64,000 nt of DNA from Escherichia coli (GCF_003334765.1 NZ_QOWT01000001.1), one strand, 5' to 3'. Positions 31,979-32,602 are shown, counted from the stretch's first letter. Program-made: numbers and translations. Notes: generated by a model from the sequence alone, not told the origin.

Positions 31979-32602
31979 TTCATCCTGATTATACGCACTG
32001 TCATGGTGCAACTGCTTCAAATTAAAACTCTGGTCTGACTTCAAATAATTATCATATTATTTATTTGCGTAACGGGATATCAGAAAAAGATATTTACCCC
32101 ATTAATTTATTAGGATGTTTACATCGGATTTGTGATTAAGCGTGGTATTATTTATTAGCGAAACGTTTCTCTCTTGATTTTTTTGCTCATTCATCAATTT
32201 TTCTTATTTTAAATTTACAATCCCTTTGGGGATTGACTTCTCTTTAGGGTAATTAATAGCCGTTAACTGACTGTTTTATGAGAAAAAGTGATATAACTTT
32301 TTATTCATTGCATAGCAAAAAATGTGATATTGCACGCACTATGTAATAACTTCTCCCACTGGCCTGGAACAACTGAACTTATTGAACTATGTTAGAAAAT
32401 ACGCCAGTTTAAGTATCTGCCTGAACTGGCAAGGTTAAGCACAATGATATATCGGCGCGTATTCCGTTGCATAAGTGTGCAAAAAAAGTGGAAGACGTAT
32501 CGAGATTTGTGCGTCTGATCGAGACATGTTTAAAAATGGCTTGCCATAATTAACGTTGTATGTGATAACAGATTTCGGGTTAAACGAGGTACAGTTCTGT
32601 TT

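Follow-up and report, generated by a model that had tools for sequence, protein, structure and literature searches.

What does the long DNA between yebO and the yobF-cspC operon of Escherichia coli do? The two are separated by a spacer of 669 bp (31934-32602), within which the K-12 sequence NC_000913.3 has no annotated features. The spacer was examined as part of a 64 kb stretch of E. coli DNA, referred to here as the window, and coordinates are positions in the window unless stated otherwise. We judge it quite probable that the interval contains no gene and is DNA that controls the yobF-cspC operon, adjoining the 3' flank of mgrB-yebO.

This kind of feature is already known, as the E. coli literature explicitly lists the spacer as a long, AT-rich, multi-promoter intergenic spacer, with 'multiple promoters within 670 bp spacer' and more than one RpoD holoenzyme peak in vitro (PMC3946193). 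These peaks, and the reports of H-NS, CRP and RpoN/NtrC binding cited below, come from in-vitro genomic SELEX and are of low resolution. The same study names the 847 bp mngB-cydA 'type-B' spacer, which is likewise long and AT-rich, with several sites and more than one RpoD peak. However, five promoters and the regulators have been mapped for cydA, whereas only the proximal start of the yobF spacer has been mapped in E. coli.

Location and composition of the spacer

The genes surrounding the spacer are as follows.

30095-30886, plus strand, kdgR
31030-31269, minus strand, yobH
31428-31571, plus strand, mgrB
31646-31933, plus strand, yebO
32603-32746, plus strand, yobF
32759-32968, plus strand, cspC
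33134-33943, plus strand, rlmA

The spacer corresponds to 1907592-1908260 in NC_000913.3 and to 1905616-1906284 in the old coordinates. Over 801 bases around the interval, the identity to E. coli K-12 MG1655 is 100 %, and 5,424 of 5,426 complete E. coli genomes contain these 801 bases. The initial annotation began the interval at 31979, which merely omits a hairpin 3' of yebO.

The GC content is 34.3 % at 31979-32602 and 30.9 % at 32000-32400, while the window as a whole has 50.2 %. Among 400-bp segments, just 0.08 % are equally low in GC, and the minimum for the 64 kb (30.75 %) sits inside this interval, which bears out the AT bias first remarked on. The accompanying statement that neither strand has an ORF of 60 aa or more is correct for ATG starts, but when GTG and TTG starts are allowed two mechanical ORFs overlap the edges of the interval.

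31823-32044, minus strand, mechanical ORF of 73 aa with a TTG start
32435-32641, minus strand, mechanical ORF of 68 aa with a GTG start

With these starts allowed, the run that is free of ORFs is 390 bp (32045-32434), the longest in the window. The 68-aa antisense ORF was rejected as a gene; in relatives it is anything from 21 to 142 aa long, and two Escherichia lineages carry a frameshift in it.

The core promoter and the leader of yobF-cspC

The yobF-cspC promoter has been published as TTGCCA-17-GATAAC (Shimada et al. 2014, PMC3946193). Both hexamers can be read in the sequence, TTGCCA at 32541-32546 and GATAAC at 32564-32569, with TG at 32561-32562. Starts for yobF were placed at -26 by directed 5' RACE and at -25 by 454 sequencing (8 reads), and the -35 box was given as 'aaatGGCTTGCCAtaat' (Mendoza-Vargas et al. 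2009, PMC2760140 supplement). A sigma-S ChIP-seq study lists the yobF TSS as 1905641 in the old coordinates (PMC4447067); as the offset from these to NC_000913.3 is 1976, this TSS is window position 32577. After the same conversion, the sigma-S peak covers 32434-32671 only. The downstream end of the interval hence holds an experimentally mapped start together with matching -35 and -10 elements. Two further elements were found next to the main promoter.

32541-32578, plus strand, main promoter, with -35 TTGCCA (32541-32546), extended -10 TGt-GATAAC (32561-32569) and start at G32577/G32578 (published promoter and mapped start)
32521-32550, plus strand, overlapping proximal promoter GAGACA-18-(TG)CATAAT, predicted start about 32555 (promoter scan)
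32508-32523, no strand assigned, CRP-like TGTGC-N6-TCGAG, right half weak, centred at -61.5 from the mapped start (conservation)

The last 100 bp or so of the spacer (32504-32602) is about 90 % identical in all genera (BLASTN and MAFFT, 77 spacers). The main E. coli leader is 25-26 nt, transcribed from a sigma-70/sigma-S promoter in this nearly invariant block, and because the start is at 32577/32578, the DNA from 31979 to 32576 is upstream DNA and not leader of the main transcript. The initial annotation had proposed both a promoter region and a long 5' UTR. The former is supported by the conserved block, the published promoter and the start at -25/-26; the latter finds no support for the main E. 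coli transcript. The TSS is close to yobF, but multiple in-vitro RpoD peaks have been reported elsewhere in the interval.

A Salmonella yobF::sfgfp primer has the 5' UTR begin 48 nt before the ATG, at a G homologous to 32555 (PMC10965054 supplement), the start predicted for the overlapping proximal promoter. A consensus promoter scan of the interval gave 3 sites where 3.4 were expected, i.e. chance level; promoter-like hexamers arise by chance in AT-rich DNA. In the CRP-like site, ATTTGTGCG.C.GATCGAGACA is nearly invariant among 40 diverse loci. As yobF is a predicted target in CRP genomic SELEX (PMC3105977), we infer that the reported target is the site at 32508-32523. A 2026 paper cites three promoters, yobFp1, yobFp2 and cspCp8, from EcoCyc/RegulonDB and gives no positions for them. 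The short yobF leader is reported to pair with CyaR and OxyS. A yobF reporter with about 200-500 bp of upstream DNA was silent in both low and high Mg2+ (PMC11429745), which is odd for a strong promoter region.

The transcript from this promoter has a recognizable relative.

32583-33043, plus strand, cspA-type leader and coding region, Rfam RF01766 (135.5 bits against a gathering score of 78)

cspC and cspA are paralogues, and the transcript from 32577/32578 aligns to RF01766 from the first model position, which falls 5-6 nt downstream of the mapped start. The match was also obtained in Salmonella, Klebsiella, Lelliottia and Kosakonia. yobF is inside the cspA-type leader of cspC, within the stretch aligned to the cspA 5' UTR. 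The coding part contributes most of the score, and the match was accordingly taken as supporting evidence only. An A-tract, TTAAAAAT, is found at 32530-32537, directly upstream of the -35, and cspA carries an UP element at the corresponding place just upstream of its -35. Unlike cspA, the yobF-cspC leader holds a translated 47-aa ORF (yobF), and the AT-rich interval sits upstream of the leader and outside it. The interval is not an RF01766 leader itself, since the match runs from 32583, the main start is at 32577/32578, and 31979-32576 lies upstream of both. The match shares only its first 20 nt with the interval as first reported.

Spacers in other Enterobacteriaceae

A scan with YebO as query picked up 80 loci in some 25 genera of Enterobacteriaceae. 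yebO and yobF are either about 600-700 bp or about 1,530-1,550 bp apart, and the long form holds a gene for an MBL-fold metal-dependent hydrolase. In every genus sampled (77-78 loci), yobF is preceded by 411-744 bp of non-coding DNA, which follows either yebO or the hydrolase gene. The Escherichia spacers are the most AT-rich, with 32-35 % GC compared with about 36-44 % in most other genera.

Comparison of 77 spacers using MAFFT and BLASTN revealed four conserved islands, 32154-32203, 32314-32403, 32464-32483 and 32504-32602. The last is the core promoter block, and those upstream of it are phylogenetic footprints within DNA that is otherwise unalignable. The operator module in the first island was examined in an anchored alignment of 70 spacers. 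Apart from the elements treated separately below, the following were recognized.

32173-32215, no strand assigned, degenerate Escherichia form of the family module TGC-N11-GCA ... GTCAT ... TTTCATTATTTTGGTGCA (anchored alignment of 70 spacers and MAFFT blocks)
32302-32319, no strand assigned, degenerate copy of an 18-bp palindrome, TGTGCATAnnTATGCACA, conserved in the family (MAFFT, 77 spacers)
32467-32481, no strand assigned, conserved block TTGCATAAGTGTGCA, family consensus CGCATAAaTGTGCAg, putative binding site (conserved columns)

In many genera the module resembles an NtrC enhancer (TGCACCAnnnTGGTGCA, glnAp2), with TGC-N11-GCA and then TTTTGGTGCA 30 bp on. However, the E. coli copy reads TTTCTTATTTTAAATTTACA and, unlike NtrC enhancers, lacks GGTGCA, and no correctly spaced sigma-54 -24/-12 element was found downstream of it. 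In-vitro binding of RpoN holoenzyme and NtrC to the yobF spacer of E. coli was reported at 1,905,652 (about window 32566), with a gel shift and with yobF/cspC mRNA changed under nitrogen limitation by RT-qPCR (Shimada 2021). This published peak falls on the core promoter and not on the NtrC-like module. The 18-bp palindrome TGTGCATAnnTATGCACA is undegenerate in Yokenella and others, reads TATTCATTGCATAGCAAA in E. coli, and is a putative site for a dimeric regulator.

The yebO-proximal stretch

The part of the spacer nearest yebO differs from the remainder in its distribution.

31947-31978, plus strand, hairpin just 3' of the yebO stop, 11-bp stem, no U-tract (RNA fold)
31979-32128, no strand assigned, Escherichia-specific AT-rich filler, GC about 30-38 % (no homologue outside the genus)

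The hairpin has a folding energy of -15.5 kcal/mol (z = -2.76), and its stem is kept in four Escherichia lineages. It is not a canonical intrinsic terminator, because AATTCATCC comes after the stem, and it probably delimits the mgrB-yebO mRNA at its 3' end or stabilises that end.

The AT-rich upstream part might be debris, either a scar left by loss of the hydrolase gene or foreign DNA kept only through H-NS silencing. A gene for the hydrolase (331-341 aa) lies between yebO and the spacer in 30 of the 77 loci, and the E. cloacae-complex spacers, alone among those searched, keep a C-terminal remnant of it (tblastn, E = 2e-4 to 3e-3). In addition, 31934-32128, which includes the filler at 31979-32128, can be aligned within Escherichia only (three other Escherichia loci), and IS1 is inserted at 31994-32000 in the clinical strain 914033. 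However, a search with 30 hydrolase proteins against the spacers that lack the gene gave no tblastn match in E. coli, and a hydrolase pseudogene remnant was rejected there. Moreover, four Escherichia lineages share blocks such as ATCAGAAAAAG and GGATGTTT.CATCGGA without a change, although over the whole spacer they differ by about 22 %. Debris would explain at most the first 200 bp or so and is compatible with a control region for the rest; we regard it as an unlikely, if arguable, account of the upstream part.

If the spacer is control DNA, the Escherichia-specific AT-rich 150 bp or so next to yebO would most likely be a platform for H-NS or other nucleoid proteins and a spacer. Binding by nucleoid proteins had been suggested at the outset, and two observations are in line with it: a genomic-SELEX table flags HNS for the yobF spacer in vitro (Shimada et al. 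2014, PMC3946193), and the composition, 30.9 % GC over 400 bp with A/T tracts, is that of an H-NS-type region.

A candidate distal promoter and the question of a long leader

Part of the second island has the form of a promoter, here called P2.

32365-32393, plus strand, P2, with -35 TGGAAC (32365-32370), a 17-bp spacer, C at -13 and -10 TATGTT (32388-32393) (family conservation)

The predicted start of P2 is at about 32399-32401, giving a leader of about 203 nt. The family consensus is cTGGAcg-N17-TATGGTAAAAAAGT, with columns 80-99 % conserved among the 77 spacers, and the block begins 220-224 bp before the yobF ATG in almost all genera and 212 bp before it in Kosakonia/Phytobacter. From the P2 block to the core promoter the spacers cannot be aligned; the leader lengths derived for them nevertheless fall into two groups, at 212 and 202 nt. 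As this difference is one DNA helical turn, it points to a constraint at the level of DNA and not of RNA, and the quantised 212/202-bp spacing suggests helical phasing of the P2 block and the core promoter. Sigma-54, sigma-E and sigma-32 promoters were considered for the block by eye and rejected, as it shows neither -12 GC nor a TCTGA/TCAAA or CCCCAT element where their spacing would require one.

Data from Salmonella bear on P2. For S. Typhimurium 4/74, a 'yobJ-cspC TSS' is listed at 1893683 (PMC10965054 Table 1), and Tn5 insertions were reported 172 and 181 nt downstream of it ('in the 5'-UTR') and 546 nt downstream ('in cspC') (PMC10965054). When placed on a Salmonella locus of our set (L084; yobF 2501-2644, cspC 2657-2866), these distances force the TSS to 182-390 nt upstream of the yobF ATG. 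The P2 homologue of L084, at 2263-2291, consists of TGGAAG (2263-2268) and TATGGT (2286-2291), and its predicted start, at about 2298, meets every constraint; this fit is arithmetic from the Tn5 coordinates on L084 and not mapping on the 4/74 sequence. With this start, both 5'-UTR insertions fall 22-31 nt before the ATG and downstream of all promoters. Such a position is as expected for loss-of-function alleles. A rival Salmonella site, GTGACA-17-CATAAA at about -275, also meets the TSS constraints. We lean slightly towards P2 being a real promoter. It would lie about 180 bp upstream of the main start and its transcript would be a minor one, with about 200 nt of leader, so that a long 5' UTR (about 203 nt from the predicted start) is possible for a minor distal transcript.

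A broader form of the long-leader proposal is that most of the interval is 5' UTR of yobF-cspC, beginning either at about -445, in the first island, or at P2 (about -203), and that the islands are RNA elements. The SalComMac TSS of Salmonella, 182-390 nt upstream of yobF, is what such a leader would predict, as are the conservation of P2 and its nearly invariant distance to the ATG. However, in E. coli two methods placed the start at -25/-26, in a report with no upstream start (PMC2760140), and the sigma-S ChIP-seq peak is confined to 32434-32671. No covarying RNA structure was detected in the putative distal leader (32400-32602), for which the RNAalifold consensus of 40 loci has -7.7 kcal/mol and 0 of 17 pairs compensatory, and the clustering at 212 and 202 nt again favours DNA over RNA. 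That most of the interval is leader is therefore improbable.

An RbsR-type operator-like palindrome

Of the islands that make up the proposed control region, the first contains a palindrome that resembles a known operator, preceded by a promoter-like element.

32157-32172, no strand assigned, RbsR-type (LacI/GalR family) operator-like palindrome AGCGAAACGTTTCTCT (15 of 16 positions as in the rbsD operator)
32143-32151, plus strand, extended -10-like TGgTATTAT, candidate promoter whose start would fall inside the palindrome (sequence read)

The K-12 rbsD operator is cAGCGAAACGTTTCGCTg (also written AGCGAAACGTTTCGCT). AGCGAAACGTTTCTCT shares with it the 16-bp palindromic form and the central CG expected of an RbsR-type operator as well as all but one position, and it is the sole site in the 64 kb with 3 or fewer mismatches to the rbsD operator. 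The chance of a match with at most 1 mismatch in a 4.6-Mb genome is estimated at about 0.1. The palindrome is kept across genera: 70 of the 78 Enterobacteriaceae spacers have its exact core, CGAAACGTTT, between flanks that are unalignable, and Klebsiella, Raoultella and a few other genera have lost it. However, unlike the rbsD operator, it adjoins no ribose gene, and its right half-site is degenerate in most genera (GTTTTTAT). PurR and Cra were considered as binders and rejected, both being a poorer fit than RbsR with 6 mismatches each (a degenerate Cra consensus was also compared by eye).

TGgTATTAT ends 5 nt upstream of the palindrome, and a T-rich -10-like run (consensus TTTTATTTTTA) is found directly upstream of it in most genera. 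yobF is about 445 bp away from the palindrome, and even its closest candidate promoter is at a distance of about 240 bp, which is far for simple repression. Among the full-text papers searched, only one on Salmonella was found to bring RbsR and yobF/cspC together; its rbsR and cspC mutants have the same succinate-growth phenotype, and it draws no link between them (PMC10965054).

RbsR or a close LacI-family paralogue may bind 32157-32172 and control transcription in front of yobF-cspC. We advance this tentatively, considering it doubtful on the likeness of the site. Under this proposal, the target could be a distal promoter of the operon or an unannotated short transcript. The RbsR-like operator nevertheless appears to be the one lead of value in the interval.

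Search for a small RNA or a small protein

The initial annotation raised the possibility of a small RNA or a very small ORF hidden in the interval. Two candidates were considered.

32218-32245, plus strand, terminator-like hairpin CAATCCCTTTGGGGATTG with a T-rich tail, E. coli-specific, probably fortuitous (consensus scan)
32278-32346, plus strand, 22-aa ORF of the initial annotation, judged not to be a gene (no SD, broken in relatives)

A small RNA of about 88 nt on the plus strand would start at about 32158 from TGgTATTAT, have the operator at +1 and end in the hairpin at 32218-32245. This order of -10, operator and hairpin is typical of a repressible small gene, the -10-like run precedes the operator in most genera, and a 93-nt stretch folds somewhat better than shuffled sequences (z = -2.45). 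However, the terminator scan gave 1 site where 1.1 were expected, and neither the hairpin nor its tail is kept in E. albertii or in two further Escherichia lineages. The other genera have no terminator at the homologous place; S. enterica subsp. enterica has a weak one, which subsp. arizonae and diarizonae lack. The tail, ACTTCTCTTT, is also a poor U-tract. In Rfam, which holds many enterobacterial sRNAs, no spacer match was obtained at E <= 10 in E. coli or at gathering score in Salmonella, Klebsiella, Lelliottia and Kosakonia. A promoter of its own combined with a conserved intrinsic terminator was not found in the spacer, and a small RNA here is very improbable.

The 22-aa ORF exists and, as first described, has no Shine-Dalgarno motif in the upstream gttaactgactgttttATG (= gttaactgactgtttt), but it is not the sole small ORF, as the gap contains 19 of at least 10 aa. 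It is broken in all three other Escherichia lineages: in E. albertii ATA replaces the start codon, and the other two carry a stop at codon 3. Small proteins have previously been found in E. coli intergenic DNA, and two genes nearby, mgrB and yobF, code for 47 aa each. Even so, a protein encoded by this ORF or one of the other 18 (10-31 aa) is scarcely credible, as 0 of the 19 are intact across the three other Escherichia lineages and a ribosome-profiling sORF study has no coordinate in 1,907,6xx-1,908,1xx in its supplementary table, a weak point as the file may be incomplete or differently formatted. With unconserved ORFs, no Rfam match, no conserved terminator and no covariation, the suggestion of a hidden gene found no support.

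Implications for the control of cspC

The reading that we prefer, gene-free control DNA, would make the upstream 450 bp or so a control region with multiple sites, among them a distal promoter and several operators. Short operator-like islands that are kept in all genera, one of them RbsR-type, would allow several regulators to tune the abundant CspC. Among these regulators, CRP, RpoN/NtrC and H-NS have been reported in vitro, and an RbsR-like repressor is proposed from the sequence of its putative site.

As a finding of a genome scan this is ordinary, a gene-free spacer in the best-studied bacterium whose main promoter was already mapped. However, RpoS, stress responses, virulence and fitness are all affected by CspC, an abundant RNA chaperone, and in ageing colonies yobF-cspC is a hot spot for mutations (PMC13162491). 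A control region extending over about 450 conserved bp, with the candidate P2 and the RbsR-like operator, can guide the design of reporter fusions and deletions. If RbsR does act here, the sensing of ribose or nucleosides would be tied directly to the level of the RNA chaperone CspC, and this could account for the succinate-growth phenotype common to rbsR and cspC mutants in Salmonella.

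Conserved and promoter-associated elements of the yebO-yobF spacer

The elements considered here, in the AT-rich yebO-yobF spacer and in yobF-cspC (window coordinates), are:

31994-32000, IS1 insertion point directly past the yebO hairpin
32157-32172, RbsR-type operator-like site
32365-32393, P2 block, a distal promoter-like element
32541-32566, minus strand, sigma-54 -24-like element at the main yobF promoter
32583-33043, alignment to the Rfam cspA thermoregulator model
32435-32968, minus strand, possible antisense transcript
32623-32632, IS1 insertion point within yobF

The distance from the P2 block to the yobF ATG is almost constant in the window (32380-32602) and in the homologous stretches of the Enterobacteriaceae loci compared (L002-L084). 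The lengths of the leaders predicted from P2 group at 212 and 202 nt, a difference of one helical turn. Between the P2 block and the core promoter, the sequence of these homologous loci is unalignable, and no covarying RNA structure was found in the putative leaders. Further upstream, the RbsR-type operator-like site is identical to the rbsD operator at 15 of 16 positions when the sequences are compared, and its exact 10 bp core is present in 70 of the 78 Enterobacteriaceae spacers. The spacer that includes this site carries no ribose genes.

Read on the minus strand, the -35 region of the main yobF promoter gives TGGCAAG-N4-TTTT, which is a good sigma-54 -24 element that lacks the -12 GC. Judged from its sequence, this minus-strand element may account for the published binding of the RpoN holoenzyme at the yobF promoter, and possibly also for the repressive role proposed there.

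Transcripts of yobF-cspC and other RNAs in the window

The alignment to the Rfam cspA model spans yobF (32603-32746), and the translated 47-aa yobF ORF thus sits where a cspA-type 5′ UTR of cspC would be. In an in vitro run-off/microarray study, both a spacer probe set on the strand opposite yobF and an 'antisense of cspC' probe set were preferentially transcribed by E-sigma70 (PMC3141248). There are hints, therefore, of an antisense transcript across the yobF-cspC operon, at least in vitro.

The mntP leader (34637-34733, minus strand) contains a Mn2+ riboswitch (yybP-ykoY) that scores 41.6 bits, whereas the Rfam gathering score is 45, and it is consequently missed by a default Rfam search. 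Next to this riboswitch, at about 34750-35150, lies the stretch with the second-highest AT content in the window. The only other Rfam matches in the window are known sRNA genes:

16950-17094, SraC/RyeA with SdsR/RyeB
52092-52177, sroD

Gene content and IS1 insertions at the locus

In Lelliottia, Kosakonia, Leclercia, Buttiauxella, Cedecea, Phytobacter and some Enterobacter, a gene for an MBL-fold metal-dependent hydrolase of 331-341 aa lies immediately 3′ of yebO (for example, L009 4308-5303 and L031 4310-5335, loci from other genera; the window has no counterpart). This gene is absent from Escherichia, Salmonella, Citrobacter and Klebsiella, and a short C-terminal remnant of it is retained in E. 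cloacae-complex spacers. Between cspC and rlmA, Salmonella (L084 3086-4831) and many other genera carry ftsI2, encoding a 581-aa PBP3-like transpeptidase, whereas in E. coli this gap is only 165 bp (window 32969-33133).

The IS1 in the spacer was found in the sequenced strain 914033. In a W3110 derivative (CP165600.1), IS1 lies within codons 7-10 of yobF, which agrees with the report that yobF-cspC is a mutational hot spot (PMC13162491).
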